A stretch of 64,000 nucleotides of DNA from Deltaproteobacteria bacterium (GTDB taxonomy: Bacteria > Desulfobacterota > BSN033 > UBA1163). Shown here piece after piece: positions 13,847 to 51,033 of this stretch (position 1 is the first letter of the stretch; the number at the start of each line of letters is the position of its first letter). Made by a program: the position numbers and the translations under genes. Under the pieces are notes generated by a model. It had not been told where the DNA came from, did not search any database, and saw only the letters and a list, made by a program, of their open reading frames with translations. The DNA lies in assembly GCA_018333535.1 (NCBI GenBank), contig JAGXTA010000046.1:20551-84550 (forward strand). Direction: 5' to 3'.

Positions 13847-13878
13847 TTTAAGAGGATGCTGAAAAAGCCAACCGCCAT

Positions 13879-18355: not shown

Positions 18356-18427
18356 AGCTCTGCGCCTATCATAACCTTCAATTCCTGAACATGGTTGCAG
18401 TAATGACTTGGAGGTGAAATACGCAAA

Positions 18428-22170: not shown

Positions 22171-22324
22171 CGAGTTAAACGCATCGGGGATAAGAGTATA
22201 CGGAGCCGGGGCTTCAACCGTAAAAGAAAACCTTTTCCTATTAAGCGAAAATAAGCTCCAGGAGCTTTCGGCGTACAATGCCTGCCGAGCCCATCAGGGC
22301 GGATGCGGACATCAACAAGAATAG
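22166..22324 (+). pseudogene. NifX-like gene, C-terminal fragment displaced by the IS insertion
   Basis: ELNASGIRVYGAGASTVKENLFLLSENKLQE aligns with ALSASGIKVYLVPGGTIREVTEAFKDGKLQE of the paralog at 25587. Confidence 0.65.
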
Positions 22325-26126: not shown

Positions 26127-26257
26127 GGGGGAGTATGGGTGGCCGTAGAGGTTAAAGAACGAATATTACGAATAGCTACGAATTATTCGAATAAAATCCT
26201 TTCGTTAAATTCGGTACCATTTGAATAATTCGCCTGTGAAAGAAAGGAAGGATAATT

Positions 26258-26470
26258 ATGCCTTACGGAATGGGACCTGCTGGATGGAGACACCATCCTT
26301 ATGGATATGGGAGAGGCTGGTGTTGGAACCCCGGGTCGTACGGAGCGCCTGTTCCACCATGGGGATCTCCAACCAAAGAAGATGAAATCCGATTTCTTGA
26401 AGAGGAAGCCAATTTCCTTCGAGGAGAGTTAGGCCAGATTGAAAAAAGGCTCGACGAACTGAAAAAATAA
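26258..26470 (+). CDS. DUF5320 family small protein, paralog 1
   Basis: Gly/Pro/aromatic-rich N-terminus (MPYGMGPAGW...GYGRGWC). C-terminal coiled helix (EEEANFLRGELGQIEKRLDELKK). RBS GGAAGG. Confidence 0.65.
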   Translation: MPYGMGPAGWRHHPYGYGRGWCWNPGSYGAPVPPWGSPTKEDEIRFLEEEANFLRGELGQIEKRLDELKK

Positions 26471-26478
26471 AAATGCTT

Positions 26479-26615
26479 TAGGGTAAAGGTTAGGAAGCCG
26501 GTTTAGTATTTGGTCATAGGGTTACGGCTTAAAAATTTTAAGCCCCGACTACGTAACCCTTTAACGAAACCGGCATCTTAACCCTAACCTTCCGACTAAC
26601 GACTTTTATTCGAAG
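26479..26615 (+). other. Nested palindromic RNA/DNA structure between DUF5320 paralogs
   Basis: The outer arms TTAGGGTAAAGGTTAGGAAGCCGGTTT and AAACCGGCATCTTAACCCTAACC enclose AGGGTTACG-[GCTTAAAAATTTTAAGCC]-...CGTAACCCT. Confidence 0.4.
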
Positions 26616-26628
26616 GGAGGTGTTTTCT

Positions 26629-26889
26629 ATGCCAGGATTTGATGGAACAGGGCCACGAGGGATGGGCCCAATGACTGGAGGAGGCAGAGGCTTTTGTGCA
26701 ATGCCAAACAGAGGCTACGGTCCATCCGGGTATAGCATGCAGGCACCTTATTATCCACCTTCCGGTGGTTATCCATTTTATGGAAGATCATTTTCCGGCC
26801 CCGTCTTTGGCGCAGGCCGTGATGGCCTCCCATGGGGTGGAGGCCGCGGAAGATGTTTTGGTGGCGGGCGAGGGTTCCGTCGTTGGTAG
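26629..26889 (+). CDS. DUF5320 family small protein, paralog 2
   Basis: MPGFDGTGPRGMGPMTGGGRGFC hallmark. RBS GGGAGGTG. The ORF track begins at an upstream GTG at 26620. Confidence 0.7.
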   Translation: MPGFDGTGPRGMGPMTGGGRGFCAMPNRGYGPSGYSMQAPYYPPSGGYPFYGRSFSGPVFGAGRDGLPWGGGRGRCFGGGRGFRRW

Positions 26890-27047
26890 TGGCAATTTGT
26901 AGTGATTGCATGGGGGCCATCGATGGAACCCAACCCCCTAACCCCTTTAGGGGAGAAGGGAGACCTGCCTACCGGCAGGCATGGGGAGTATTTCTTGCGC
27001 TATACTCTGTGCGCTATGCGGTTTTGTAGGTATAGGAGGTGATAAAA

Positions 27048-27278
27048 ATGCCAAGAGGAGACGGAAAATGTCCCCCCGGAGGCAGTGGTCCAGGAACAGG
27101 AAGGGGTGCCGGAATGGGTGGATCTCGTAAGGGAAGAATGGGTGGTTCCAAAGCAGGTGCAGGCCCTGGAGGAGAATGTATGTGTCCAAAATGCGGGACG
27201 ACTGCTCCTCATGAGGCTGGAGGGCCTTGTTCATTTAAGAACTGCCCGAAATGCGGTGCAAAGATGGTGAGAAAATAA
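27048..27278 (+). CDS. DUF5320-like small protein, paralog 3, with a C-terminal CxxC...CxxC zinc ribbon
   Basis: MPRGDGKCPPGGSGPGTGRGAGMGG... followed by CPKCG...CPKCG. RBS TAGGAGGTG. Confidence 0.65.
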   Translation: MPRGDGKCPPGGSGPGTGRGAGMGGSRKGRMGGSKAGAGPGGECMCPKCGTTAPHEAGGPCSFKNCPKCGAKMVRK

Positions 27279-27300
27279 TTTATTCGATAAGAAAACGAAA

Positions 27301-27777
27301 TTGGATTTAAAAATAGGGGAATCCATGAATGAAATGTTGACCGGTCAAAAAAGGCAGGGAGAAGTCAATCTACACAGAAATTGTTTTGCCTGTGGTTCAA
27401 ATGTCGGAATAGGTTTAGGACTAAAGTTTTATAAGAATGAAGATGGAGCTGTCTTCGGAAGTTTCTTTGCAGATTCGAAGTTTGAAGGTTATTCGGGCAT
27501 CATTCATGGAGGAATTATAGCTACTCTGTTGGATTCTGCGATGACCCACTGTCTCTTAATGAAAGATATCCCTGCCCTCACGGGAAGATTGTCGATCAAG
27601 TATTCTACCCCCATTCGAACAGGAACAGTTGTGAAGTTAGAAGCAAGGATTGTTGACCAAGTCCATGAAATGTTCATTTTACAAGGGAAGGCTTGGGTGG
27701 ATGGGAAGAAGGTGGCAAGTGCAGAGGCCAAATATAGGAGCATGAAAAGAAGGGGCAATCAAGAGGCGAAGAAATGA
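27301..27777 (+). CDS. PaaI/hotdog-fold thioesterase family protein
   Basis: GIIHGGIIATLLDSAM motif and length. Confidence 0.75.
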   Translation: MDLKIGESMNEMLTGQKRQGEVNLHRNCFACGSNVGIGLGLKFYKNEDGAVFGSFFADSKFEGYSGIIHGGIIATLLDSAMTHCLLMKDIPALTGRLSIKYSTPIRTGTVVKLEARIVDQVHEMFILQGKAWVDGKKVASAEAKYRSMKRRGNQEAKK

Positions 27778-27992
27778 CGCTTTTCCCATCTAAGGATCCT
27801 TCTTTAGAAAATAAATTGATCGGGAATATTCTAAGGGAATATCCCCGGATGGCCAGGATCATGGAAAGATATTTTGGTGGACATTGCCTGGAAAGGTCTG
27901 GCTTTAAGATCCAGACACTCGGGATGGCCTGCATCCTATTCGGCGTCGATCAGAAGCAGTTGCTTCAAGAATTTGAGAAAATCCAAAATTGA
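27774..27992 (+). CDS. DUF1858 domain protein (hybrid-cluster-protein-associated redox disulfide-like)
   Basis: IGNILREYPRMARIMERYFGGHCLERSGFKIQTLGMACILFGVD matches the DUF1858 pattern (Y-P...HC...C...TL.EA....G.D). Confidence 0.6.
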   Translation: MTLFPSKDPSLENKLIGNILREYPRMARIMERYFGGHCLERSGFKIQTLGMACILFGVDQKQLLQEFEKIQN

Positions 27993-28951
27993 TAGACATG
28001 ACAAAAAACCCAAGTGGCCCGAAATACATCTTTGGACCGGTTCCTTCCAGAAGATTGGGAAGATCCTTGGGAGTCGATCTTGTCCCATATAAAACCTGTA
28101 CCTTTGATTGCATCTATTGCGATTTGGGAAGGACCACTTTTAAAACAACCTCTCGAAAATCTTATGTATCAACTGAGGAAGTCCAAAGGGAACTGGATCT
28201 TACTTTATCTCCCTTAGAAAAGAAGCCAGATTACATTACTCTCTCCGGGTCAGGGGAGCCCACATTGAATCAAAATATTGGAGATATCATCCACACCATC
28301 AAGCATTGGACTTCTATCCCTGTGGCAGTTCTAACGAACGGCTCTCTCCTCTCTATCGAAGAAGTCAGAAAAGATTTAATTGATGCCGATGTGGTTTTGC
28401 CTTCTCTCGATGCCATCAACGACGTGACTTTCCAGTGTTTGAACAGACCTCACCCGTCGTTAAAAATAGATGAAATCATTTTGGGTCTCATTCAATTTCG
28501 AAATCAGTATCGAGGCCAAATCTGGCTCGAAGTGGTCTTTTGCAGAGGGATAAACGACGATAAAGAGGAGATTGAAAGACTCAAAGGGATCATCGAAAGA
28601 ATCCAGCCCGATAGGGTTCAATTGAACACACCCGTCAGGCCGCCTGCTGAAGAATTTGCTTATCCCTTAACAACAACTCAGATTGAAGAAATAAGGAAAA
28701 AATTGGGAGATAAGGCGGAGATTATTTCTGAATTTACTGCTCCCCTGGGAGAAGAATTTAACTCCGTGAAGGATACAGAGATTCTTAACTTGATCAAGAG
28801 AAGACCTTGCACAACGGAAGATATTTCTAAAGCTCTTGGACTCCGTATAGATGAAGTTGTGAAGCATTTAGATCATCTTACAAAAACAGGGCCAATCCGA
28901 TATCGAATGTATGAGCACCATTGTTATTACGAGTTTAATGTAACTAATTGA
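27989..28951 (+). CDS. Radical SAM protein (COG0731-like) with a C-terminal winged-helix-like region
   Basis: CTFDCIYCDLG CX3CX2C motif near the N-terminus. 320 aa. Confidence 0.8.
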   Translation: MIDMTKNPSGPKYIFGPVPSRRLGRSLGVDLVPYKTCTFDCIYCDLGRTTFKTTSRKSYVSTEEVQRELDLTLSPLEKKPDYITLSGSGEPTLNQNIGDIIHTIKHWTSIPVAVLTNGSLLSIEEVRKDLIDADVVLPSLDAINDVTFQCLNRPHPSLKIDEIILGLIQFRNQYRGQIWLEVVFCRGINDDKEEIERLKGIIERIQPDRVQLNTPVRPPAEEFAYPLTTTQIEEIRKKLGDKAEIISEFTAPLGEEFNSVKDTEILNLIKRRPCTTEDISKALGLRIDEVVKHLDHLTKTGPIRYRMYEHHCYYEFNVTN

Positions 28952-29023
28952 AAAAACCCTCCCCTTTTCCCCTCTCCCTGCTGGGGATAGGGTAAGGGTG
29001 AGGGGTGACAGGTAACGAAGATC

Positions 29024-29890
29024 ATGATCATTTCAATCGCAAGCGGGAAAGGAGGGACCGGAAAGACCACCATCGCCGTTAATTTAGCTCTCTCTCTATC
29101 AAAAGGGACTGTCCAACTAATTGATTGCGATGTGGAGGAACCTAATTCCCACCTTTTTCTATCCCCCACCATCCACCAGGTTACCTCTATGGGAATTCCG
29201 GTCCCCCGAATTGATGAATCAAAATGTACATATTGCGGCAAATGTGGAAAGGTCTGTGAATACCATGCAATTGCTGTCATTTTGAAAAACGTTCTGGTTT
29301 TCGACGAGCTCTGCCACGGATGCGGTGCCTGCTCTTACTTATGCCCAGAAAAAGCCATATTCGAAGTGGAAAGAGAGATTGGAATTGTCCAGGAAGGAAG
29401 TGCGGATGGAATTCCATTCGTTAATGGAGTTCTTAATATTGGAGAACCCATGGCTTCTCCACTGATCCGGAAGGTAAAGGAGAGTATTCAAAAGGATAAA
29501 ACCGTCATTCTCGATGCCCCTCCAGGGACAGCCTGCCCTGTTATTGAAACCGTCAAAGGAAGTGATTTTTGCGTCCTCGTTACAGAGCCGACCCCCTTTG
29601 GGCTGAATGATTTAGAGTTAGCTGTAGGAATGTTGGAAAAATTAGGAATTTCGATGGGAGTTGTAATCAACAAGGCGGATGTTGGGGACCGAGAAGTCTG
29701 GGATTACTGCCAATCGAAAAATATCCCTATTTTAATGGAAATTCCCATGGATCGGAGGATTGCTGAATCCTATTCAAGGGGAGTTCCAATTGTTGTCGAA
29801 TATCCTTCTTACAAGCAGGGATTCAAAGGTCTATTTGAAAAGGTGGAGAAACTCCATGAGTCAAGTCGAAGAAATGGAGCAGTTAAGTGA
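29024..29890 (+). CDS. MinD/ParA-type P-loop ATPase with a 2x[4Fe-4S] ferredoxin insert
   Basis: Walker A ASGKGGTGKTT, then CTYCGKCGKVCEYHA and CHGCGACSYLCP ferredoxin motifs. Confidence 0.85.
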   Translation: MIISIASGKGGTGKTTIAVNLALSLSKGTVQLIDCDVEEPNSHLFLSPTIHQVTSMGIPVPRIDESKCTYCGKCGKVCEYHAIAVILKNVLVFDELCHGCGACSYLCPEKAIFEVEREIGIVQEGSADGIPFVNGVLNIGEPMASPLIRKVKESIQKDKTVILDAPPGTACPVIETVKGSDFCVLVTEPTPFGLNDLELAVGMLEKLGISMGVVINKADVGDREVWDYCQSKNIPILMEIPMDRRIAESYSRGVPIVVEYPSYKQGFKGLFEKVEKLHESSRRNGAVK

Positions 29891-30320
29891 TGAGGTGGGC
29901 TACCTCGTCTATAATGAAACGTTGATCGATCACTTTATGCATCCCAGAAATGCGGGAGAAATAGAAAACCCCGATGCAATGGCGACCGTTGGTGATCCTA
30001 CCTGCGGGGATTTTATTAGGGTGTACCTGAAGGTGGAAGCCGGGAAGATATCCGTCTTTAAATTTTTGACCCAGGGTTGTCCTGGAGCCATTTCCACTTC
30101 CAGCATTGCCACAGAAATGGCTATTGGTAAGACTCTCGATGAGGCGTTGAAATTGACAGACAACGATGTGATCGAAGCTGCCGGTGGCATCCCGTCAAGA
30201 AAAGCCCACTGCTCCCTTCTGGCAATCAGAGGATTGCATCAGGCCATTTTGAATTATCACACCTCATCCCATCCCTCGCCCCAAGAAGGAAGGGGGGAGG
30301 GTGAAGAGGAAAGGAAGTAG
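29856..30320 (+). CDS. NifU N-terminal/IscU-like Fe-S cluster scaffold domain protein
   Basis: HFMHPRNAG...GDPTCGD...TQGCPGAISTSSIATEM...GKTLDEA. RBS GGTGGAG. The C-terminal 17 aa are encoded by a G-rich REP element. Confidence 0.8.
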   Translation: MSQVEEMEQLSDEVGYLVYNETLIDHFMHPRNAGEIENPDAMATVGDPTCGDFIRVYLKVEAGKISVFKFLTQGCPGAISTSSIATEMAIGKTLDEALKLTDNDVIEAAGGIPSRKAHCSLLAIRGLHQAILNYHTSSHPSPQEGRGEGEEERK

Positions 30321-30323
30321 TAA

Positions 30324-31205
30324 GTGGAACAAAATGAAATTAAACAATTAGCCATTGTCAGTGGAAAAGGTGGAACAGGAAAAACCACTCTTGCTGCTGC
30401 TTTTGCCGCTTTAGCTAAGAATAAAGTGATGGTGGACTGCGATGTGGACGCGGCAGACCTGCATCTCTTGCTTCAGCCGAAGATCCTAATGCAAGAGAAG
30501 TACTTTGGGGGAAGATCACCGCATGTCGATTTGGATAAATGCACCCAGTGTGGGCTCTGTACTGAGGTATGCCGCTTCCATGCCATTGATAATGGGGTGG
30601 TTGATCCTGTTTCGTGTGAGGGGTGTGGCTTTTGTAGACACATTTGCCCTGAAGAAGCCATTGTGATGGAAGAGGCTTTTTCAGGAGATTGGTTTGTCTC
30701 CGAAACACCCTATGGTCCATTTGTCCATGCACGATTGGGAATAGGAGAGGAGAATTCCGGTAAACTCGTAACTGTCGTCCGAAAAAAAACGGTTGAGATT
30801 GCAAAAGAGAAGAACCTTGACCTCATACTGATCGACGGCCCCCCAGGCATCGGATGTCCGGTCACGGCCTCGTTGACCGGAGTGAATCTGGTCTTAGCCA
30901 TCACAGAGCCTACTCTTTCAGGAATTCATGATTTGGAAAGAATCTTGAAACTCTCCGATCACTTTAAAATTCCCTCGATGGTCTGCGTCAATAAATTCGA
31001 CATTAACCTTGAGAATACGGCCCAAATAGCATCCTACTGCAAGAAGAACGGTTCCCGCCTCATCGGTCAAATTCCTTACGAGCCAAAAGTGGTCGAGGCA
31101 CTGGTTCAAAGGAAGACAGTGATAGACTACCCTTGCAATGAAGTTCAGGGGATTTTGCTCAAGATGTGGCAGGGCATAGAGATGACTCTGCGGGGCGAAG
31201 CATGA
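30324..31205 (+). CDS. MinD/ParA-type P-loop ATPase with a 2x[4Fe-4S] ferredoxin insert (second paralog)
   Basis: Walker A VSGKGGTGKTT, then CTQCGLCTEVCRFHA and CEGCGFCRHICP. Confidence 0.85.
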   Translation: MEQNEIKQLAIVSGKGGTGKTTLAAAFAALAKNKVMVDCDVDAADLHLLLQPKILMQEKYFGGRSPHVDLDKCTQCGLCTEVCRFHAIDNGVVDPVSCEGCGFCRHICPEEAIVMEEAFSGDWFVSETPYGPFVHARLGIGEENSGKLVTVVRKKTVEIAKEKNLDLILIDGPPGIGCPVTASLTGVNLVLAITEPTLSGIHDLERILKLSDHFKIPSMVCVNKFDINLENTAQIASYCKKNGSRLIGQIPYEPKVVEALVQRKTVIDYPCNEVQGILLKMWQGIEMTLRGEA

Positions 31206-31942
31206 CCGAATACAAGAAATATTGTTATTGGTTGGATTCGAACAGGTTCACATTGGTCAAGAAAGTTCTTGAGGAAGAAGGGAATCAAGGGACCGATGAA
31301 ACTCATTTGCCATGTCGCGTCATCAAAACCTCGACGGAGCTGGGTTATATCGCCCCTTCTGCCTGGAACGGGTTCTGTAAAAGAAGAACTTCCTGGTATT
31401 GGAAGTCTGATAAGGCAGAAAAATTCCTGATTGTCAGTAACAAACCAATGGACATTGCAGGGCGTAAAGATCCAATTACGATTGTGGAGTCGAATTTCAA
31501 ACCCGATCGCTTACCTTCCGAGAAAGAGATTCTTGAATTGATCGAATTAGACGAATACCGCAAGAGAAAACCGAAGGGATGGGACAAGCCTGAGGCTATC
31601 GAAAAGGATTTCTACCAGATATACTTTGAGCGCTATGGGGCCACAGACTCTTTTGATTTCGAAAAACTCCTTAAATACCATTCGGCAAATCATGCCAATT
31701 TCATCGATCCTCAATTCTTCGAAAATATCAAGGGAGAAAAGGCGCCTTATTCGATTTCGGATAGCTTTTATGTCTGTTCCTCATGTCTTGAATTTTTCAA
31801 CATTCTGGGAGAAAAATGGCCAATCAAATATGTAGTGCCGTGCATTGGTGCGGTTAAGTTTGCTGGCCTTCCAATGAACCATTATTTTGAAGTCAAAACT
31901 TTTGGGGCCGTTAACTCAGATGGTAGAGTATCTGCCTTTTAA
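31202..31942 (+). CDS. Hypothetical protein (246 aa, no recognisable domain). The 3' end overlaps tRNA-Lys.
   Basis: Long ORF starting at MTEYKKY, overlapping the stop of the upstream gene. Its last 38 nt run into the tRNA and the stop codon falls in the anticodon loop, so the true 3' end is uncertain. Confidence 0.45.
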   Translation: MTEYKKYCYWLDSNRFTLVKKVLEEEGNQGTDETHLPCRVIKTSTELGYIAPSAWNGFCKRRTSWYWKSDKAEKFLIVSNKPMDIAGRKDPITIVESNFKPDRLPSEKEILELIELDEYRKRKPKGWDKPEAIEKDFYQIYFERYGATDSFDFEKLLKYHSANHANFIDPQFFENIKGEKAPYSISDSFYVCSSCLEFFNILGEKWPIKYVVPCIGAVKFAGLPMNHYFEVKTFGAVNSDGRVSAF

Positions 31943-31977
31943 GCAGAGAGTCGTGGGTTCGAGTCCCGCACGGCCCA
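31905..31977 (+). tRNA. tRNA-Lys (anticodon UUU)
   Basis: Manual cloverleaf fold. Acceptor stem GGGCCGT/ACGGCCC (7/7 bp). D arm ACTC/GAGT. Anticodon stem TCTGC/GCAGA with loop CTTTTAA. T arm GTGGG-TTCGAGT-CCCGC. Discriminator A. CCA is not encoded. Confidence 0.85.
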
Positions 31978-31989
31978 CTATTCTAATAA

Positions 31990-32292
31990 ATGGAACAAAG
32001 ATTCAGTCACGAGATGAAAATGGTCCCCATTGAGTTGAAACCCAATCTATCGAGTTGTATTGAAACCCTATCGAAAAGAGAATATGAAAGGACACTCAAT
32101 CTCCTTCTTAAAGAAGGGAGTGTGGACAAAAGGCTTGGAGAAAGGCTTGAAGTTTTAAGGCTGTTTCTGGAGTCAACAGATTTTGGTCACCTTCGAAGTC
32201 AATATGAAGGATATCTCACGGAGGGGAAAAAGGTCACATTCCTCATCTATCCCGAAGAGGGGAAAGCGAGGTATAAGTTGGTAGTGGAATGA
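31990..32292 (+). CDS. Hypothetical protein
   Basis: 100-aa ORF downstream of the tRNA. No recognisable domain. Confidence 0.35.
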   Translation: MEQRFSHEMKMVPIELKPNLSSCIETLSKREYERTLNLLLKEGSVDKRLGERLEVLRLFLESTDFGHLRSQYEGYLTEGKKVTFLIYPEEGKARYKLVVE

Positions 32293-32407
32293 TAGGGTGT
32301 TACGACAAGCTGATCTGATAGAGGGTTTTTTGCAGCGGGTTGGTGAATTTGCAGGGAAATAATCTAACTGACGAGTCACTCTCTTCAGTTTTTGGAAGGA
32401 GGATTAT

Positions 32408-32641
32408 ATGCCGATTTATGAGTACCGTTGTGAGAGGTGTGGTCAAGAGAATGAATTTCTAATTATAGGAAGGAAGGAGAAACTCCGATGCAAACAATGC
32501 GGGAGCGAGGATTTGACGAAGCTGCTGTCTGCCCATAATACATCCAACAGCTCTTCGCGAAGATCTTCTGAACCCGGTCCCGGAGGCTGTTGCGGGGCGC
32601 CTAATTCCTGCGGAACACCGGGGAGTTGTTGTTCTGGGTAG
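32408..32641 (+). CDS. FmdB-family zinc-ribbon protein with a Cys/Gly/Ser-rich tail
   Basis: MPIYEYRCERCG...CKQCGS hallmark. RBS GGAAGGAGG. Confidence 0.7.
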   Translation: MPIYEYRCERCGQENEFLIIGRKEKLRCKQCGSEDLTKLLSAHNTSNSSSRRSSEPGPGGCCGAPNSCGTPGSCCSG

Positions 32642-32713
32642 GTATGGCACTTCTACGGTTCTTTTCTTAAGAGGGTGTTCGGGTAGTAAAAAGATAAAAA
32701 GGAGGTGAAAACC

Positions 32714-32998
32714 ATGTTATCAAATATACCCATCAATCTTGAGCTTGTTGGAAAGGGAGACACGGACAAAGAAATACTAAGGGCCGGGGTCATCGCGGAA
32801 CTGGACGCTATCAACCTTTACGAACAAATGGCCGCCATGGCCAAAGATAAGAATCTCAAAAAAATTCTGCTTGATATAGCCAAAGAAGAGAAAACTCATG
32901 TCGGAGAATTCCTGACACTGCTCCTGAGAAAAGACGGAGAGCAAGAAGCGGAGCTAGAAAAGGGAAAAAAAGAGGTTGAAGAGTTGATGGAAAAGTAG
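32714..32998 (+). CDS. Ferritin-like/rubrerythrin-like small protein (EncFtn-like)
   Basis: ELDAINLYEQMA...IAKEEKTHVGEF, with the E..H di-iron ligand pattern. Strong RBS AAGGAGGTG. An alternative GTG lies at 32705. Confidence 0.6.
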   Translation: MLSNIPINLELVGKGDTDKEILRAGVIAELDAINLYEQMAAMAKDKNLKKILLDIAKEEKTHVGEFLTLLLRKDGEQEAELEKGKKEVEELMEK

Positions 32999-33131
32999 GA
33001 ATGGTAGGACGTTTCTAAGGATGTTGTCGCCGAGGATATTCATTGTCATATTGAAGATATTGTTTCAAATTCCAAATTGGATTCTAAAAGTGATAAAATG
33101 AGACTAGAACGAAGACCAAAGGAGGTGTCTT

Positions 33132-33839
33132 ATGGCCGAAGCAATAGATGGATGCGTGAAACCGGCAAAAGGGCCAATTATGGCTGGAGAATCGAAAGCC
33201 TCTCAACTGTCACCAATTCAAAAGGAGGAAATCAAAATGATCGCTCGAGTTGGCAAACCGGCGCCCGATTTTGAGGCAAGCGCCTATGTGGATGGGGGAT
33301 TCAAGAACATTAAGCTTTCAAATTATAAAGGAAAGTGGGTCGTCCTTTGCTTTTACCCTGGAGATTTTACCTTTGTCTGACCTACTGAATTGTCGGCAGT
33401 TGCCGCCAAATATCAAGAATTCAAGTCCCTTGGCGTAGAATTTTTATCATTCAGCACAGACAGTCGTTTTACCCACAAGATCTGGCAGGAGGAGGAGCTC
33501 TCAAAAATGGTTCCAGGTGGAGTGCCATTTCCAATGCTGTCAGATGCAGGTGGTCGTATTGGTAGTGTCTATGGAGTCTACGATGAAGATGCAGGGGTGG
33601 ACATTCGGGGTCGTTTTTTAATCGATCCGGATGGAGTCATTCAAGCCATGGAGACGGTCACGCCACCGGTGGGCCGGAACGTTTCTGAACTGATCCGACA
33701 GGTCAAGGCTTTTCAGCATACACGCGTTACAGGTGAGGTGATGCCTTCCGGATGGCAGCCTGGAAAACCGACCTTAAAGCCCGGTCCTGATTTGGTGGGA
33801 AAAGTTTGGAAGGTCTGGAAACCGGAAATGGCCTATTAA
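33132..33839 (+). CDS. Peroxiredoxin (AhpC/Tsa family) with in-frame UGA (selenocysteine predicted) at the peroxidatic-Cys position. Copy 1.
   Basis: ...FYPGDFTFV[TGA 33378-33380]PTEL... where the family has FVCPTE. The ORF track shows two same-frame ORFs split only by this TGA. The N-terminal 35-aa extension is conserved by synonymous changes in copy 2. Confidence 0.8.
33392..33407 (+). promoter_or_regulatory. Candidate bacterial SECIS hairpin 11 nt downstream of UGA in copy 1
   Basis: GTCGGCAGTTGCCGCC, a small stem-loop with GUU in the loop. Conserved in copy 2 at 38734-38749. Confidence 0.4.
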
Positions 33840-33878
33840 ATTTTTTCTGGATATGTCCCAGGGAGGCGGTCACGATCA

Positions 33879-34853
33879 ATGAACGATATCATTCAAGTGA
33901 GAGATCTAACGAAGTTCTATGGGAACACCCCTGCTATTGACCATATCTCCTTTGAAGTCAAAAAAGGGGAGGTCTTTGGTTTCCTTGGACCAAATGGAGC
34001 AGGGAAAACGACCACCATTCGGATGATGGTAGGCCTGACCCAACCCAGTTCCGGCACCGCATTGGTCGATGGCCACGATATTTTGAAGGAACCCGTGGAG
34101 GTCAAAAAGACAATTGGCCTTGTACCTGAAACCTCAAACCTCTATGGGGAGCTTACCGCACTTGAAAACCTTATCTATCAGGCAGAGATCTATGGAGTTC
34201 CAAGAAAAGAGCGCCGAATTAAAGCGATCCAGCTTCTTGAGGAATTCGGTTTGAAGGAACATCAAGACAAATCTTTTCAGAAATTATCGAGAGGATTAAA
34301 GCGAAGGCTAACGATTGCCGCTGCATTGATCCACCATCCCAAAATCCTCTTCCTTGATGAACCCACTACAGGTCTGGATGTGATGAGTGCAAGGGGGCTG
34401 AGGAAACTTATCCTTGATTCAAAAAAGAAAGGATTAACCATCTTTCTCACCACTCATTATATCCCTGAAGCAGAAAGCCTTTGTGATCGTATTGCTATTA
34501 TTGTTCAAGGGAAAATACGGGTCGTGGATACCCCCGAAAATATAAGAGACCAGATGAAGGAGGCCGAAGTCCTTGAGATCGGACTGGATCGCACTCCAGA
34601 GGATTTAAAGAGTAAGCTCCCTTCCGTGGATGGGATCGACAAGATTGTGATAGACGAAAACCGTATCCGTTTTCATACCAGGAGACTCGATCAGGTTGCA
34701 TCTCCTGTTATGAGATTCCTTGAAGGACACGGGGCCAAAATTAAATCGATTAATACGTTGAGTCCAAGCCTTGAAGATGCTTTTGTGAAAATAACCGGTC
34801 TCGATTCAGAGTTGATGAAGATCGATAAGCCAATGAAAGCAGGTCCGGAATAA
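33879..34853 (+). CDS. ABC transporter ATP-binding protein (ABC-2 type exporter)
   Basis: Walker A GPNGAGKTT, signature LSRGLKRRLTIA and Walker B LFLDEP. Confidence 0.9.
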   Translation: MNDIIQVRDLTKFYGNTPAIDHISFEVKKGEVFGFLGPNGAGKTTTIRMMVGLTQPSSGTALVDGHDILKEPVEVKKTIGLVPETSNLYGELTALENLIYQAEIYGVPRKERRIKAIQLLEEFGLKEHQDKSFQKLSRGLKRRLTIAAALIHHPKILFLDEPTTGLDVMSARGLRKLILDSKKKGLTIFLTTHYIPEAESLCDRIAIIVQGKIRVVDTPENIRDQMKEAEVLEIGLDRTPEDLKSKLPSVDGIDKIVIDENRIRFHTRRLDQVASPVMRFLEGHGAKIKSINTLSPSLEDAFVKITGLDSELMKIDKPMKAGPE

Positions 34854-34920
34854 TTTCCTCTCTCTCCCCCATGCGCCTGCCTGCCGGTAGGCAGGGGAGA
34901 GGGCGAGGGTGAGGGGGAAT

Positions 34921-35658
34921 ATGGAAGAACTCAAAAAAGTCTATTTCATAGCTAAAAAAGATATGGGGGCCTACTACCTCAAGCCTCCCTTAATCAGTTG
35001 GGGATTGATGCTTCCCATCGTCTTTGTATTAGCTTTCTATTTCAGAAATCCGGCGGGAATCAAAGAGGTCGTCCCAGGATTGATTGGTTTGACCCTTCTC
35101 TTCTCATGCACGTCCATGGCAGCCATCGTGATTACCTTTGAGAAAAGAATAGGTGCTCTGGAGCGGCTCCTCCTGGCACCATTGGAGATCAGAACGATCC
35201 TCTTCGGCAAGACCCTTGGAAGTTCTGTATTCGGGTTGGTTATCACCATCGTCATCACAATATTTCTCATTCCAATTATAGGCCTTTCTATTAATTATCC
35301 CTTTTCTTTTTCTCTCATTATCATCCTTTCTGGTATCGCCTTCTCACTCCTTGGAATCCTTATTTCTGTAGGAGTAAAGGAAGTCTTCGAAGCCATGACC
35401 ATGTCCAATTTCTTTCGATTCCCAATGATATTTTTATGCGGGGTCTTCTTTCCTGTGCCTTCCATGCCCTTCCCTCTTCCTATCCTCTCTTATCTCCTAC
35501 CATTGACCTATACGGTTGATGGTTTGAAACATTGCCTGTTGGAAGATAAAGGAATGATCCCTTTTTATCTGGATTTATTAATTTTATTAGGATTCGTTTT
35601 TTTACTCTTTAGTCTCTCGTTATTCATTTTTAAGAAAAGAATTCGCCAAGAATTCTGA
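34921..35658 (+). CDS. ABC-2 family transporter permease
   Basis: Six TM segments with an ABC-2-like topology. The ORF track begins at 34909 inside a REP element. Confidence 0.8.
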   Translation: MEELKKVYFIAKKDMGAYYLKPPLISWGLMLPIVFVLAFYFRNPAGIKEVVPGLIGLTLLFSCTSMAAIVITFEKRIGALERLLLAPLEIRTILFGKTLGSSVFGLVITIVITIFLIPIIGLSINYPFSFSLIIILSGIAFSLLGILISVGVKEVFEAMTMSNFFRFPMIFLCGVFFPVPSMPFPLPILSYLLPLTYTVDGLKHCLLEDKGMIPFYLDLLILLGFVFLLFSLSLFIFKKRIRQEF

Positions 35659-35673
35659 AAGGAGGTGAAAACC

Positions 35674-35814
35674 ATGTGCCAAAGTAAATCTGGTTGCACC
35701 CAACCCGAAAATCTGAAGGGAACCCCAAAGGATTGCTCGGCCGAGCAGATCAACGTCTGTCATCCTGGAGAGAAGGGGCATCCCTGTGAGGCTGAGGAAA
35801 CGGAAAGAAAATAG
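35674..35814 (+). CDS. Small Cys-rich protein (46 aa, 5 Cys)
   Basis: Strong RBS AAGGAGGTG, then a 7-nt gap, then ATG. MCQSKSGCTQPENLKGTPKDCSAEQINVCHPGEKGHPCEAEETERK. Below the 60-aa ORF-track cutoff. Confidence 0.4.
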   Translation: MCQSKSGCTQPENLKGTPKDCSAEQINVCHPGEKGHPCEAEETERK

Positions 35815-36093
35815 ATGATGTTTTATAAAAAAGAATGTATCATCAGTTCCGTTGAGACTCAGATTATCTTCACTTAAAAATCCCTCCGAACTTCCCTTTA
35901 GAGAGATGGTGGGATTTGATTTGCAGGGCGAGGCTTTAGCTTTGCATCAAGCAACCCTAAAGAGCTGCCCTACAAATAATTGGAGAAGGGGGTGTATTTG
36001 TTATTTGATCATATGGAAAGGAGGTGATGGACTGAAGATTAAATTCGGTTGGGTGGGGATGAATCTATAAAAATTAAAAGGGAGGTGGAAGTC

Positions 36094-37155
36094 ATGTTAA
36101 AGGAGATGAATCGAAGGGACTTTTTAAAGACAACAGCAGCGACAGGTGCGGTATTGATGGCAGGAGATGTTTTGAAAGGAGGTGCTACAATGGCATATGG
36201 TTCTGTAAAAATCCCAGAGGTTGAAAAATTGGTTATTACCGTCATAACGGACAATTACTATGATTGCCTGAGGCCAAATTACAAGGTGGCTAAGAGATAT
36301 TTCATCATTCCTGGTACATCTATCCATTCAGAGCATGGCTTGGCTTATTACATCGAGACGGCCATCAATGGCAAGCCCAATACCTTTATGTTTGATTATG
36401 GATTGGATTTCCAGGGGGTCGGTAAAAACATGGAGCTTCTCGACATCGACGTGAAGAGAGTAGAGGCACTAGGGATAAGCCATGGCCATTTTGACCATTG
36501 GGGAAATCTTATTGCCATTCTCAAATATAATAGAACGAAAATCAGGAAGGGGATCCCCTTGTATGTAGGTGAGGAAACCTTTTCTCACAGGTTTGCCAAA
36601 CTGCCACCCGGACCTTTCGAAGTAAGTGGTCTCATTGATCTGGAGCAGTTGAGAAGGGATGAGATCGAAAGCCTCGGCACGGTTAAGATTGTAGAGGTAA
36701 AAGATCCGACTCTTATTGTTCCTGGAGCATATCTGACTGGAAATATTGAAAGAGTTACCGAATATGAGAAAGGGTCGCCGATTTTATTAATCAAAAGAGG
36801 AGATAAAATGGATCTCGATCTCTTCATGGGAGAGCAGGCACTGGTATTTAATGTAAAGGGAAAGGGTTTGGTAGTTGTCTCATCCTGTGCCCATGCCGGG
36901 ATTGTCAACACAGTAAAACACGCCCAGAAAATGACTGGAATAGATAAAGTCCATGCCATCATCGGAGGATTTCATTTGAGCGGTGCCAAACCTGAGGTAA
37001 TCCAGAGGACGATTGCCGACATCAAGGCTGTTACTCCAGAATACATCGTTCCCATGCACTGTACTGGATTTGAGGCCGTCACAGCATTCGCCAGAGAAAT
37101 GCCAGGGCAATTTATCATTAACACTGCCGGAACCAGATACATCTTTACAGCTTAG
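36094..37155 (+). CDS. MBL-fold metallo-hydrolase with a twin-arginine (Tat) signal
   Basis: MLKEMNRRDFLKTTAATGAVLMA Tat motif. HGHFDHWG metallo-beta-lactamase motif. RBS GGGAGGTGG. Confidence 0.8.
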   Translation: MLKEMNRRDFLKTTAATGAVLMAGDVLKGGATMAYGSVKIPEVEKLVITVITDNYYDCLRPNYKVAKRYFIIPGTSIHSEHGLAYYIETAINGKPNTFMFDYGLDFQGVGKNMELLDIDVKRVEALGISHGHFDHWGNLIAILKYNRTKIRKGIPLYVGEETFSHRFAKLPPGPFEVSGLIDLEQLRRDEIESLGTVKIVEVKDPTLIVPGAYLTGNIERVTEYEKGSPILLIKRGDKMDLDLFMGEQALVFNVKGKGLVVVSSCAHAGIVNTVKHAQKMTGIDKVHAIIGGFHLSGAKPEVIQRTIADIKAVTPEYIVPMHCTGFEAVTAFAREMPGQFIINTAGTRYIFTA

Positions 37156-37163
37156 ATTGACCC

Positions 37164-37203
37164 GGGGCGTTGAGGTTTCATTCACCTCAACGCCCCCTTT
37201 TTT
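37164..37203 (+). terminator. Rho-independent terminator
   Basis: The stem GGGGCGTTGAGG-tttcatt-CCTCAACGCCCC is followed by CTTTTTTT. Confidence 0.8.
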
Positions 37204-37307
37204 ACAGGGCTTTTTGAGATTGAGATTCAAGTTCTGCTGAATATTTTTGGAGCGAAAAGGTGAGATCCTTTTATCTAAATCAGAAGAGGTGAGGAGGGGG
37301 ATTTTAT

Positions 37308-38459
37308 ATGAGATCTTTTCTTAATCAATATGTTAAATTACCCATCGTTTTATTTGCCTTAATTCTTCCCTTATTTTTTACTATATCAATCTCTCTCGCT
37401 TTAGACTTCGCTCCCATTCGAACCCCGTCCACCGGCTATCAACCTCAATTTCAAGTCTCAGGGAACAAAATCTACTATGTCTGGCATGAGTACGATGGTC
37501 CCTATCGGCAGATTTTCACTGCGGAAATGAACACTGATGGGACAGGATGGAGGTCAGAAAAAAGAACTTCTGGCCAATTTGATAAAGTCTTTCCTCAACT
37601 TCAGGTTGCGAATGACAAGATCTATTATGTTCGTCAGCAACCTGATCTAACAATAAATCGCCAGATCTGGACGATGGAGATGAGCATTGACGGAACAGGA
37701 TGGAAAGAGGTTCAGAGGACGAATACCCCCTTTGATAAGCAGTTTCCCCAGCTACAGGTGGTTGGCAATAAAATTTATTATACCTGGAATGAATCAGATG
37801 GAAAACACCGCCAGGTATGGACAGCAGAGATGAATTTAGATGGGTTGGGCTGGGAGGCAGTGAAAAGGACCTCAACACCTTATGACAAATTTGAGCCTCA
37901 GCTTCAGGTCGTGGGTGAAAAAATCTATTTCGTTTGGAGGGAGTTTGACGGAAGACATTTTCAGATCTGGACGGCTGTCATGGATATTGATGGGAAAGGG
38001 TGGCAAGAAGTGAAGCGGACAAATACCCTGTTCGACAAACATAACCCGCAACTCCAGGTGGATGAAGGAAGAATCTACTATACCTGGCATGAAGCAGATG
38101 GCCCGGATTGGCAAAAAGCAAGATATCAGATATGGACAGCTCAGATGAACATCAATGGAACAGGATGGCTGGCGAATCAAAGAACCTTTGTAGGCTTTGA
38201 TAAGTATACCCCCCAATTACAAGTTCAACGAGGAAGAATTTATTATATCTGGGAGGAATCTGATGGGAAATATCGTCAGATTTGGACGGCTGTGACGAGT
38301 AAGGATGGAACGGGATGGATATCTGAAAAGAGGACGACATCTCCTTATGGAAAATACGACCCCCAATTTCAGATTGTTGGGAATAGAGTTTATTATGTGT
38401 GGCACGAAGACCACGGACCTACTGAACCCATCTGGGTGGCTATAGAGACACTAAAATAG
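37308..38459 (+). CDS. Secreted repeat protein with about 6.5 tandem copies of a roughly 46-aa unit (beta-propeller-like)
   Basis: Signal peptide. Repeats of [48 protein letters not shown]. Confidence 0.7.
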
Positions 38460-38473
38460 AAAGGAGGTTAAAT

Positions 38474-39181
38474 ATGGCTGAAGCAAAAGATGGATGTGTG
38501 AAGCCGGCAAAGGGGCCCATCGGTTTGGCGGAAACCAAAACCTCTCAAACCGCACAAATCCAAAAGGAGGAATTGAAGATGATGGCTCAAGTTGGAAAAC
38601 CAGCACTGGATTTTGAAGCGAGTGCCTATATCGACGGGGGTTTTAAAAATATCAAATTATCTGATTATAAAGGCAAATGGGTAGTCCTCTGTTTTTATCC
38701 CGGTGATTTCACGTTCGTTTGACCTACCGAGTTGTCGGCAGTTGCCGTCAAATACGATGAGTTCAAATCGCTCGGAGTTGAGGTTTTGTCATGCAGTACA
38801 GATAGCCGCTTCATCCACAAGATCTGGCAGGAAGAAGAACTCTCGAAGATGGTGAAAGGTGGGGTTCCCTTTCCGATGCTGTCGGATGCAGGAGGCCGCA
38901 TCGGGAGTGCCTACGGCGTCTACGATGAAGAAGCAGGAGTCAATATTCGGGGTCGTTTTTTGATCGATCCGGATGGGGTCATCCAGGCAATGGAGACTGT
39001 TGCTCCACCGGTCGGCAGGAACGTTCCCGAACTGATCCGGCAGGTCAAGGCCTTTCAGCATGTGCGTGCAACGGGTGAGGTCATGCCTTCCGGATGGCAA
39101 CCTGGGAAACCGACCCTAAAACCCGGACTGGATTTGGTTGGCAAAGTATGGAAAGTCTGGAAACCCGAGATGGCTTTTTAA
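38474..39181 (+). CDS. Peroxiredoxin (AhpC/Tsa family) with in-frame UGA (selenocysteine predicted) at the peroxidatic-Cys position. Copy 2.
   Basis: ...FYPGDFTFV[TGA 38720-38722]PTEL.... About 75-80% nt identity to copy 1 across the whole gene, including the N-terminal extension. Confidence 0.8.
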
Positions 39182-39272
39182 CACTATTCCCTGACCCCCT
39201 GCCTACCGCGAGGCAGGCATCCCTCTCCCCCTGCCTACCGGCAGGCAGGCGCTGGGGAGAGGGAGAGGTAAA

Positions 39273-39734
39273 ATGTACAGATGTATGATGGATAAGGAAG
39301 CTCATCAACTTAAAGATTTTTTAGAATTGGGTGGACTAAAAAGTACCAAAGAAAGAGAAACGATTCTCAAAGAACTTGAAGTTCTGGAGGAACATTTCAA
39401 CGCTGAAAAACTATATTCAATTCTCAGCAGAAAGGGAACGAAGGTCTCACGACCTACTATTTATCGAACGCTAAAGCTTCTTGAACGATTCCATCTCATT
39501 GAAAGGCTCGATGTTAAAAAGAACTGTTTCTATTACGAGCCTATGTCTCATAAAAAGGACCATGGCCATCTGGTTTGCGAGCATTGTGGGAGGATTATTG
39601 ATTTTGCAAGTGAGAGTATTCAAGATTTGAAATCGGAGGTATTCGAGGGGAAGAACTTCAAACTGGACAATATTTCCATTCAGATATTCGGCATATGCGA
39701 GACATGTCAGAAAACATCTAAAATTAAAAGCTAA
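39273..39734 (+). CDS. Fur-family transcriptional regulator (PerR-like by context)
   Basis: HGHLVCEHCG...CETCQ metal sites and the Fur fold. It lies between the Sec-peroxiredoxin and the Sec-NADH-oxidase-like gene. Confidence 0.8.
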   Translation: MYRCMMDKEAHQLKDFLELGGLKSTKERETILKELEVLEEHFNAEKLYSILSRKGTKVSRPTIYRTLKLLERFHLIERLDVKKNCFYYEPMSHKKDHGHLVCEHCGRIIDFASESIQDLKSEVFEGKNFKLDNISIQIFGICETCQKTSKIKS

Positions 39735-39750
39735 ATATGAGGAGAGGAAG

Positions 39751-41118
39751 ATGTTAAAGAAAGAGAAACTTGTCATCATTGGCGGATCGGCCGCTGGCCC
39801 CAGTGCAGCAGCCAGGGCAAAGCGAGTTAATCCTGATCTTGAAGTGACTATGTTCGAACAGGGTCGATTCGTATCCTATGGCTCCTGAGAAACTCCTTAT
39901 TACATCGGTGATGTAGTAAAAGATCAGAGCAAATTGATAGTCCGGACACCCCAACAGTTTAAAGAAATGCAAGATATTGATGTGAAGACCGAGCATCGCG
40001 TCACTAAAATTGATTCCAAAGAGAAAAGGATTGAAGTTGTGAATTTATCAAAATCCGAAACTCAATGGTTTTCTTACGACAAACTTATCGTTGCTACAGG
40101 TGCCCGATCCAGACGTCTCAATATTCCCGGAAGCAATGCCAAGAACATATTCACCCTGAAAGATCTTGATGACGGCATCCGTATTAAGAATTATATCGAT
40201 GAAAAAAGGCCGAAAAGGGTTGCTATCCTCGGTGGTGGCTTTATTGCATTGGAGATGTGCGAGGCTTTTCGGTTAAGAAATTGTGAGACCTTTCTATTCT
40301 GCCGCAGAGATTTACCCGCGGGTAATCTCGAAAGGGAAATCTCTGAAAAAATATTGAAGGAGTTAGAAGAGAATGGCATTCATTTCCTCGCCCATCATGA
40401 ACCCGCAGCATTTAAGATGAATAGTAATGGAGAAGCCATCTCCTTCGAAACCAATAAAGCCGAATATCCTGTGGATATGGTCTTGATGGCCATTGGAGTC
40501 ATTCCGAATGTGGAAATAGCTAAAGAGGCAGGTATTGAGCTTGGAAAGACCGGAGCGATTCGAACAGACACGGCTCAAAGGACTAATCTTACAGACATTT
40601 ATTCGGCAGGAGACTGCTCAGAAGTTTTTAATCTCGTGAGTCAGGATTGGGTTCATACACCCCTTGGAGATATTGCGAACAAACAGGGCCGGGTGGCAGG
40701 TGAGAACGCTGCCGGTGGAAAGGCCACTTTTTCCGGTGCAGTGGGGTCAGCTGCTTTTAAGGTTTTTGAATTGGAGGTGGCCTTCACAGGTTTAGGAACA
40801 CAGACTGCCCGAGGATATGGTTTTGATGTGGATTCACAGATCATTGAGGCTGAATCGAAGGTAGGATATATGCCGGGATCAAAATGGATGCTCATTAAGT
40901 TGATTTTTGATAGAAGGAGTGGAAGGCTTTTGGGTGCTCAGATGGTCGGGAAGGAAGGAGTGGCTCGGAGGATCAACGCCCTTGCGGTCGCGGTTCATCA
41001 GAAGATGAGCGTGGACGAAATTGCACGGCTCGATTTTGCTTATGCGCCTCCTTTCTCCGCTCCCTTGGATCCGATTTTAATAGCTGCCGAGCAGGCAGCG
41101 AAGAAAATCGTTAGGTAG
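39751..41118 (+). CDS. NADH oxidase/CoA-disulfide reductase-family FAD-dependent oxidoreductase with in-frame UGA (selenocysteine predicted) at the redox-active Cys position
   Basis: RBS GAGGAGAGG. N-terminal FAD motif LVIIGGSAAGPSAAARAKR. FVSYGS[TGA 39886-39888]ETPYYIGDVV compares with the family motif ISFANCGLPYYIGG. The frame is continuous with ORF 39934-41118. Confidence 0.75.
39896..39919 (+). promoter_or_regulatory. Candidate bacterial SECIS hairpin beginning about 10 nt after UGA
   Basis: Stem TTATTACATC/GATGTAGTAA with one mismatch. Apical loop GGU. Confidence 0.45.
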
Positions 41119-50961: not shown

Positions 50962-51033
50962 AGTTGAGAATTTATAATCCCCCCTACCCCCCTTTAGAAA
51001 AGGGGGGGTGGGGGGATTTGAAGGAGATTTTTT

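Follow-up and report, generated by a model that had tools for sequence, protein, structure and literature searches.

The window analyzed here, the whole stretch of 64,000 nucleotides (nt) from contig JAGXTA010000046.1 of an uncultured anaerobe (Deltaproteobacteria bacterium), has a GC content of 46% and encodes NifX-like proteins, ParA, radical-SAM clusters, a sigma-54 activator, and selenoprotein peroxiredoxins; its relatives carry carbon monoxide dehydrogenase. Dispersed between these genes, and in some cases within their last codons, is a set of G-rich palindromic repeats, one of which, the focal element, lies at the junction between the genes of an ATP-binding cassette (ABC) ATPase and an ABC-2 permease. 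Sequence comparison indicates that the G-rich repeats are copies of a known Escherichia coli element, BoxC (also named PIT or TM_ECO), and not a new kind of repeat. Relatives in NCBI include GCA_964517975.1 and GCA_036769565.1, and the contigs used for comparison are designated by L numbers; among these, the near-identical contig L002 showed no variation with respect to the window.

The repeats present a common layout, in which a pyrimidine block (Y) is followed by a first loop, a complementary purine block (R), a second loop of about 3 nt (CGA, TAA, CGG, or GT in the window copies), and a third block that mirrors R (Table 1). The set is composed of BoxC-type copies, a second sequence family of the same architecture, and a separate CCTGCC hairpin module. 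An earlier sequence-only reading had treated it as one family, which was not borne out, since there are at least two unrelated sequence families sharing an architecture, plus a loop-resident hairpin. The BoxC-type blocks CCCTCTCCC, GGGAGAGGG, and GGGTGAGGG are found at loci 26109, 28970, 34860, and 39188 and in degenerate form at 30262 and 26925, while the second family (CCCCCCTTT, AAAGGGGGG, and GGGGGGATTT) occupies loci 12509, 12675, 14948, and 50972, and the element at 14618-14685 is a third sequence variant of the same layout. A fourth block (CCCTCACCC) often lies upstream in this lineage, making the whole unit a long palindrome, and full four-block palindromes are seen at 10423, at 50972, and in many copies in relatives. 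The copy at 10423 is the strongest hairpin of the window and has blocks related to the BoxC type (GGGAGGGGG CGA GGGGGAGGG). The 20-nt CCTGCC..GGCAGG hairpin is a module separate from the Y/R/mirror layout and resides within the loops of BoxC-type copies, either inside loop 1 (34876 and 39230) or between Y2 and Y1 (39198, and in L008); it is also found at 17460-17704 and 18408-18650, in a pair of 245-nt direct repeats that are unrelated. Hairpins of the CCTGCCTGCC..GGCAGGCAGG type also occupy BoxC-type loops in L107, a metagenome-assembled genome from an unrelated phylum (Verrucomicrobiota), and likewise at 6200-6290 of L008, so the combination of loop and hairpin is not unique to this lineage.

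These repeats are real and occur far above chance expectation. The 24-mer GGGAGAGGGCGAGGGTGAGGGGGA is found exactly at 34895-34918 and 26109-26132 and with three mismatches at 10452-10475, compared with 0 in shuffles. The 20-mer CCTGCCTACCGGCAGGCAGG occurs exactly at 39230-39249 (+) and 34876-34895 (−), with variants at 39198, 26964, 17540, 17592, and 18488, giving 7 sites (14 strand matches with up to 3 mismatches) where 0.01 are expected. Segments 34854-34897 and 39228-39271 are 89% reverse complementary over 44 nt, and the stretches 26107-26138 and 34893-34924 match at 31 of their 32 positions. A scan for the Y-stem/R-stem/mirror-R-stem order (9-nt blocks, with at most one mismatch in Watson-Crick pairing and at most one in G.G/A.A/T.A mirror pairing) recovered 8 loci with 11 hits in total, whereas 30 dinucleotide shuffles gave 0.07 hits on average. 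Canonical G-quadruplex (G4) motifs number 7 in the window and 2.1 in shuffles, and 6 of the 7 fall in these repeats. A perfect-stem hairpin finder missed most copies, and sliding-window folding was used in its place; by this method the repeat hairpins are the most stable 60-nt folds of the window (−52 kcal/mol at 10421, −37 at 50971, and −36 at 34856), and a C-rich/G-rich hairpin is present at all 12 of the coordinates that the sequence-only reading had listed. Its description of the repeats as dispersed, structured, multicopy, and present in both orientations, with a CCTGCC...GGCAGG core on either strand, therefore stands.

Holder et al. (2015) described TM_ECO as 5'-CCCTCNCCC N3-6 GGGNGAGGG N3 GGGNGAGGG, accepting one mismatch, and equated it with BoxC and with Maher's PIT (potential intrastrand triplex) elements (PMC4666352). 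Kaplan et al. (2016) reported the same sequences (HPG1 and HPG2; GGGAGAGGGTTAGGGTGAGGG and a ..CCG.. variant) as a hairpin/G-quadruplex switch (PMC5100583). The blocks and the 3-nt second loop of the window copies agree with the TM_ECO pattern and with the HPG1/HPG2 sequences. The pyrimidine block CCCTCNCCC is matched by CCCTCTCCC at 25960-25968, 28970-28978, and 39221-39229, and its place is taken elsewhere by CCCTCGCCC near 30273 and, with one mismatch, by CTCTCTCCC at 34860-34868. The purine block GGGNGAGGG with its 3-nt loop is present as GGGAGAGGG plus CGA at 26109-26120 and 34895-34906 and, with one mismatch, as GGGATAGGG plus TAA at 28984-28995. The third block, again GGGNGAGGG and a mirror in terms of G.G:C, A.A:T, and T.A:T triads, appears as GGGTGAGGG at 26121-26129, 28996-29004, and 34907-34915, each time with at most one mirror mismatch, and is degenerate or truncated at 30262-30310 and 39264-39272. 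First loops of 3 to 6 nt are found at 28979-28983 (TGCTG) and in the ancestral NifX-tail copy (CCAAG), and, if the 9-nt CCCTCTCCC is taken as Y, that of the L135 copy has 5 nt (CTGGC); longer first loops occur in the focal copy (26 nt, including the hairpin), in the 39188-39272 copy, and in the interrupted NifX copy. In fact, the L135 copy and the uninterrupted NifX-tail copy fit the TM_ECO pattern exactly.

In E. coli MG1655, all 23 TM_ECO copies are intergenic, with five inverted pairs among them; across 262 proteobacterial genomes 3610 copies are reported, and sequence variability is raised around the copies (PMC4666352). The window does not share the strictly intergenic placement, as 25948-26132 and 30262-30310 form the last codons of NifX-like and NifU-like open reading frames (ORFs), but being intergenic is something reported for the E. 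coli copies and forms no part of the structural definition. A 40-nt consensus matches 5409 of 5426 complete E. coli genomes, at a median of 18 places per genome; when a BoxC annotation was sought near fabI in the MG1655 RefSeq record, the stretch was found to list coding sequence features only. A scan for GGAGAGGGNNNGGGTGAGGGG with one genome per species retrieved at least 120 stretches, and the matches listed come from Pseudomonadota, Verrucomicrobiota, Planctomycetota, Acidobacteriota, Chloroflexota, Nitrospirota, Cyanobacteria, Omnitrophota, Myxococcota, Thermodesulfobacteriota, Elusimicrobiota, Deinococcus, and others. Nearly all of these listed matches have CCCTCTCCC and a short loop directly upstream, with the Y block mostly 3 to 6 nt away, and 66 of 139 cores conform to the strict published pattern. 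The core was also found on viral contigs of IMG/VR, the matches listed there being a lower bound.

The claim that the repeat supplies gene ends was confirmed by ortholog comparison, which shows it to provide the last codons and the stop of both the NifX-like and the NifU-like gene. The NifX-like ORF (25569-26126) encodes 185 amino acids (aa), and its best 120 homologs all have 122 to 140 aa. In L003 and L005 the native NifX-like tail (..GMGGGRGMGGRRGS) is kept and the protein ends in HFGMGGGRGMGGRRGS. The Y-loop-R-mirror element is found within the tail codons in the window, L008, L010/L011, and L012/L013; the element-bearing protein ends in SPSPSLSPKGRGRG, with the TGA lying within GGGTGAGGG, and a fossil of the native tail (ATGGGTGGCCGTAGAGGTTAA) is present downstream of the copy wherever the contig reaches. 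In L006 only the Y half is retained; the loop is occupied there by an insertion unlike that of the window, and the contig breaks off about 115 nt past this loop. The copy at the NifX junction of L010 is decayed. From these alignments, the native G/R tail of the NifX-like gene appears to have been lost to an inserted copy that brought its own TGA stop. The NifU-like gene (end at 30320) has an element-derived tail in the window and in L010/L011; the proteins of L003/L005, L008, and L012/L013 end in NY(K/Q/R)xK with no such tail. The tails are thus dispensable, as some orthologs do without them, and are best regarded as apparently tolerated capture, which does not by itself demonstrate a function. 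The copy at 28957-29005 is present in the window only, and the five relatives that cover this junction have spacers of 14 to 35 nt.

The focal junction was compared in 25 relatives whose permeases are 76 to 95% identical. In 13 of these no element is present, and the stop codon of the ATPase gene shares nucleotides with the permease start codon (TAATG or ATGA). L135 carries a clean canonical copy of 46 nt (TTTCCTCCCTCTCCCC TGGC GGGAGAGGG CGA GGGTGAGGGGGAAT), the window, L142, and L146 carry a copy whose loop 1 contains a CCTGCC-type hairpin, a variant copy is present in L140, and the remaining relatives have unrelated repeats. All empty alleles contain AAAGGGGG or AAAGGAGG within the final codons of the ATPase gene, spaced from the permease start as a Shine-Dalgarno sequence would be, whereas all spaced alleles lack this motif at the end of the ATPase (AAAGCAGGT, AAAATGGGA, and others). 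The sole Shine-Dalgarno-like sequence of the element-bearing alleles is the third block (GAGGGGGAAT-ATG), which is kept even in L142 despite a partial block deletion. This comparison gives good support to a plausible ribosome-binding site derived from the third block at 34921, and at 39273 the purine run GGAGAGGTAAA-ATG is likewise element derived. The proposal that the repeat supplies purine-rich ribosome-binding sites is therefore plausible at these two starts and fails at 29024, since the start codon there lies 19 nt beyond the end of the G block. The term exapted is plausible for the ribosome-binding site at 34921 and would be premature for the dispensable tails.

The best explanation, with a probability of about 75%, is that the repeats are local BoxC/PIT/TM_ECO copies that behave as discrete insertions and were captured at gene boundaries. 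Comparison of close relatives shows each unit to be either there or missing at one exact position, and the BoxC unit spans about 37 to 50 nt, comprising CCCTCTCCC, a short loop, GGGAGAGGG, a 3-nt loop, and the mirror GGGTGAGGG. Copies would persist where they are harmless, that is, between genes or within their final codons. Where a copy lies at a 3' end, a dispensable native tail would be replaced by P/S-rich and then G/R/E-rich codons together with the TGA carried by GGGTGAGGG. At the focal junction, a copy would have separated two formerly overlapping, translationally coupled cistrons, leaving the single-stranded third block (GAGGGGGAAT-ATG) in the Shine-Dalgarno position. The orthologous NifX-tail copies of other genomes differ, in spite of the 31/32 identity of the two window copies, which points to recent copying or gene conversion, and the most likely routes of copying would be mobilization in trans or recombination or gene conversion of a structured single-strand intermediate.

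Several observations weigh against this explanation. None of the window copies fits the strict TM_ECO pattern, as all of them deviate by one mismatch or by an expanded loop; their assignment relies on the single mismatch that the TM_ECO authors tolerate and on clean copies at orthologous sites. The BoxC-type units could not be linked to any transposase, terminal inverted repeat, or unambiguous target duplication, and among about 19 copies compared there was no consistent target-site duplication or motif; GGRATR-like flanks on both sides at two loci (e.g., GGAATA) are a suggestive lead. The element-bearing focal alleles are scattered on the permease tree, making gain, loss, and recombinational allele exchange inseparable, and the direction of change, insertion or deletion, is read from gene structure only. 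Given this scatter and the resemblance of the junction-proximal sequence of the empty L136-L139 alleles to more distant clades, homologous allele exchange is likely. In addition, RNA folding predicts that part of the third block is base paired, which could hinder ribosome binding. Furthermore, the window joins two Joint Genome Institute (JGI) contigs inside the NifX-tail insertion: in metagenome 3300001813, 29273-49734 is identical to JGI24123J20310_1000091 and 545-21435 to JGI24123J20310_1000191, and their coordinates imply an overlap of about 69 nt at about 26004-26072, inside the repeat. Repeats of this kind break short-read assemblies; the gene order across the join agrees with that of relatives. 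Finally, earlier work found no promoter or terminator activity of PIT elements in E. coli, and the triplex formed by TM_ECO in vitro was not seen in vivo, so that a function is established nowhere (PMC4666352).

An extension of the preferred explanation, in which BoxC-type elements are truly mobile, structure-defined cassettes that prefer stop/start junctions and spread across phyla, perhaps on phage DNA, is unlikely. Each insertion would then deliver a stop codon, a hairpin, and a Shine-Dalgarno-like purine block, which would uncouple overlapping cistrons and rewrite C termini, and the puzzling cross-phylum sequence identity would be accounted for.

It is similarly unlikely that the repeats are a selected nucleic-acid switch between hairpin and G-quadruplex or triplex that controls neighboring genes and owes its cross-phylum conservation to function. 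The three blocks are nearly invariant across distant phyla, the G4 motifs of the window are concentrated in the repeats, the focal copy adjoins a start codon, and the triplex, G4, and hairpin states were all observed in vitro by circular dichroism and nuclear magnetic resonance with E. coli oligonucleotides (PMC4666352, PMC5100583). By analogy with that element, these alternative structures may be physical potentials of the window copies. However, copies are present or absent at the same junction between relatives that are 90 to 95% identical, they decay freely (30262, 26925, and the NifX-like junction of L010), other elements insert into their loops, their neighboring genes belong to unrelated classes, and E. 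coli shows neither a promoter or terminator effect nor an in vivo triplex footprint.

That the repeats act as intercistronic RNA hairpins, either terminators or 3'-end stabilizers or processing sites such as the E. coli repetitive extragenic palindromic (REP) sequences in malE-malF, is rather improbable. Very stable hairpins do lie directly 3' of stops within co-oriented gene pairs, and relatives carry other repeats at the same junctions. However, the transcript would form a strong hairpin with no U tract after the BoxC-type stem, which is not a classical terminator; a terminator and promoter scan of 25000-40000 flagged none of the repeat elements, and an Rfam search of the window at the gathering threshold retrieved a tRNA-Lys only, with no RNA family over the repeats. 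Empty alleles with overlapping genes are common, and the PIT elements of E. coli lack terminator activity.

Mobilization as REP or REPIN elements by a RAYT, a domesticated Y1 transposase, is very unlikely. The repeats are hairpin forming, multicopy, and mostly intergenic, some form inverted pairs (e.g., 12509/12675), a Y1 transposase gene is present in the window, and some insertions, such as that at the NifU site, lack a clear target duplication, as in IS200/IS605-type transposition. However, the sole transposase of the window, the Y1_Tnp gene at 21630-22061, belongs to a 647-nt IS200-like unit that is itself a recent insertion, and no cognate RAYT flanked by repeats was found within the window. 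This unit lies inside a NifX-like gene after GAAGT, ends in CGAGT with no target duplication, and is missing from L006 and L007, the flanks of which are 93 to 95% identical. It was rejected as the source of the repeats, as BLAST of its ends against the window showed them to be unrelated, and its subterminal hairpins share nothing with the repeats. Moreover, the G-rich elements lack a short palindrome with a conserved GTAG ahead of it, and the GTAG of the CCTGCC hairpin is part of the stem-loop itself (GGTAGG), not of its 5' flank. REPs are specific to a species or a RAYT, whereas the same 37-nt core is common to many phyla here. No mobility genes were found to be linked to TM_ECO copies in E. 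coli (PMC4666352). The label REP-like given by the sequence-only reading is accordingly not supported.

A chance resemblance of unrelated low-complexity GC runs can be dismissed: the arms have a simple composition, and with composition preserved the focal site reaches a fold z-score of just −2.0, but exact 24-mers recur where 0 are expected, the architecture hits far exceed those in shuffles, and the same block order and 3-nt loop recur in hundreds of unrelated genomes.

Table 1. Repeat copies and inserted elements in the window
Feature	Coordinates	Strand	Description
Focal element	34854-34920	+	Between ABC ATPase stop (TAA 34851-34853) and ABC-2 permease start (ATG 34921); Y arm TTTCCTCTCTCTCCCCC 34854-34870, loop 1 with hairpin module, R GGGAGAGGG 34895-34903, loop 2 CGA, mirror GGGTGAGGG 34907-34915, then GGAAT
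Hairpin module in focal loop 1	34876-34895	−	Missing from the otherwise near-identical L135 copy
Left half of NifX-tail copy	25948-25973	+	Y2+Y1 blocks CCCCTTCTCCATCCCTCTCCCCC, then AAG; C-terminal codons of NifX-like gene
Secondary insertion, 130 nt	25974-26103		Loop 1 of NifX-tail copy
Right half of NifX-tail copy	26109-26132	+	GGGAGAGGG CGA GGGTGAGGG GGA; TGA stop 26124-26126 within third block
BoxC-type copy	28957-29005	+	Between radical-SAM and CbiA/Fer4 genes; Y CCCTCTCCC 28970-28978, loop TGCTG, R GGGATAGGG, loop TAA, GGGTGAGGG 28996-29004
Degenerate BoxC-type copy	30262-30310	+	CCCTCGCCCC .. GGGGGGAGGGTGAAGAGGA; encodes NifU-like tail TSSHPSPQEGRGEGEEERK
Composite copy	39188-39272		Between (very likely) selenoperoxiredoxin and Fur genes; Y2 CCCTGACCC, hairpin module 39198-39217, Y1 CCCTCTCCC, hairpin module 39230-39249, R GGGGAGAGGG, then AGAGGTAAA before ATG 39273
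Degenerate copy and adjoining hairpin module (26964-26983)	26925-26990	−	
Four-block palindromic copy	10423-10476		CTCACTCTCCCCCTCTCCCC .. GGGAGGGGG CGA GGGGGAGGG TGAG; between divergent genes
Same architecture, other sequence	14618-14685	−	Y CCTCCCTTT, 36-nt loop, R AAAGGGAGG, loop CGG, third block GGAGGGATT
AAAGGGGG-type copy split in loop	14686-14984	+	Y half to ~14707; R and mirror half 14948-14984
Four-block palindromic AAAGGGGGG-type copy	50972-51020		Between two HbpS-like genes
MITE-like insertion, ~327 nt	12423-12749		Between permease and ATPase genes; flanking duplication and terminal inverted repeats
IS200-like insertion sequence, 647 nt	21528-22174	−	Y1 transposase ORF 21630-22061 (PF01797, E = 1.8e-34)

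Two insertions of the window combine terminal inverted repeats, a target-site duplication, and an empty site in relatives, as is typical of miniature inverted-repeat transposable elements (MITEs). The one at 12423-12749 carries two AAAGGGGGG-type copies, at 12509-12546 (+) and 12675-12711 (−), and is flanked by the duplication TTATGATTAAG, which copies a stop/start overlap that is intact in L006. The 130-nt unit at 25974-26103 has 16-nt terminal inverted repeats (AGACTGTGTCGTAATT and AATTATGACACAGTCT), is flanked by a 5-bp duplication of CCAAG at 25969-25973 and 26104-26108, and is translated in frame, accounting for 45 extra codons of the NifX-like gene; it is probably a widespread MITE. At 25990-26090 it holds two sub-hairpins, CCGTTCATGGTTCGAGAGCCTCACCACGAACGG and GCCGTTCGTCCTGAGCGTGTCGAAGGGCGAATGGC, the translations of which (..VRPERVEGR..) presumably resemble peptides found in many metagenome hypothetical proteins. 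The loop of the AAAGGGGG-type copy at 14686/14948 is likewise split; the inserted sequence measures about 250 nt, and TTTGCAAAA is its duplication. These nested insertions indicate that the hairpin loops of the repeats are recurrent targets of other small elements.

Other repeats were noted in the window. Those at 13847-13996 and 14796-14860 belong to another family, GTCATTCCTGCGGAAGCAGGAATCCAG, arranged in long palindromes, the 150-nt unit of which follows an ABC ATPase gene and is missing from L006; sequences of this type are presumably widespread in environmental genomes, as translated hypothetical proteins. Heptamer-like runs of CTGATAWCC and GGTTATCAG at 1439-1597, 3824-3980, and 11448-11586 form long inverted matches across 7 to 10 kb, and related heptamer runs of the GGTTTGAGG type fill the ATPase/permease spacer in several relatives (L141, L148, and L160). 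The direct repeats of about 245 nt at 17460-17704 and 18408-18650, which are 86 to 90% identical, bracket a gene for a HicB-like antitoxin (18026-18355) and a small minus-strand ORF; the segment of about 1.1 kb that contains the HicB-like gene is missing from L006, which suggests an inserted toxin-antitoxin cassette.

Among the neighboring genes, two paralogous peroxiredoxin genes (33132-33839 and 38474-39181) have an in-frame TGA exactly at the position of the peroxidatic cysteine and are split by gene callers into ORFs of 82 aa and 110 to 149 aa, a split that is also seen in L010/L011. To judge from this codon position, they very likely encode selenocysteine peroxiredoxins. A 383-aa protein encoded at 37308-38459, following a twin-arginine translocation (TAT)-signal protein, contains internal repeats of about 50 aa (150-nt periodicity, at least 6 units) and has a weak match to DUF5050.

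What is new here is that, as the alignments indicate, BoxC-type units are inserted or exchanged at exact positions in a distant lineage, including coding 3' ends and overlapping gene junctions, and that four-block and loop-hairpin variants of the element exist. This lineage offers natural filled and empty BoxC sites at single-nucleotide resolution, with insertions in coding 3' ends that are kept across species and a focal junction where translational coupling would have been replaced by an element-borne ribosome-binding site. The mobility of BoxC elements and their effect on neighboring genes thereby become testable questions. Annotation also benefits, as C-terminal tails rich in G/E/R or P/S, along with numerous small hypothetical proteins in metagenome bins, become recognizable as translated repeats.

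The repeats share with BoxC/PIT/TM_ECO the identical blocks CCCTCTCCC, GGGAGAGGG, and GGGTGAGGG, the 3-nt second loop and, in clean copies, the short first loop. In both cases the elements are multicopy, lie on either strand and sometimes in inverted pairs, vary in their loci among close relatives, and have no associated mobility gene. The window lineage differs from E. coli in that many copies have a fourth block and form a full palindrome, loops can hold the 20-nt CCTGCC..GGCAGG hairpin or larger insertions, the second loop is CGA, TAA, or ATG instead of TTA or CCG, two copies lie in coding 3' ends whereas the E. coli copies are reported as always intergenic, and the host genome, that of an uncultured anaerobe, has 46% GC. 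BoxC/PIT has been recognized in E. coli since the 1990s, in descriptions spanning 1992 to 2016, and to our knowledge its origin, copying mechanism, and function are not agreed upon.

With REP, BIME, and REPIN elements, the repeats have in common that they are short, GC-rich, hairpin-forming, dispersed, and mostly intergenic, and that their loops can be insertion targets of other elements; IS1397 inserts into the palindromic units of E. coli. In contrast to those elements, no GTAG-plus-palindrome signature and no RAYT association were seen here, and the core is common to many phyla instead of being lineage specific. The insertions at 12423-12749 and 25974-26103 resemble MITEs in their terminal inverted repeats, in their duplications of 11 and 5 bp, and in their absence from relatives, whereas in the BoxC-type units of 37 to 50 nt nothing other than their own palindrome forms clear terminal inverted repeats, and a consistent target duplication is lacking. 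The Rickettsia palindromic elements (RPEs) are small palindromic repeats inserted in protein-coding genes and translated as extra peptide segments. Their sequence is unrelated to that of the repeats described here, and while RPEs are internal and in frame, the copies in this lineage replace C-terminal ends and supply the stop.

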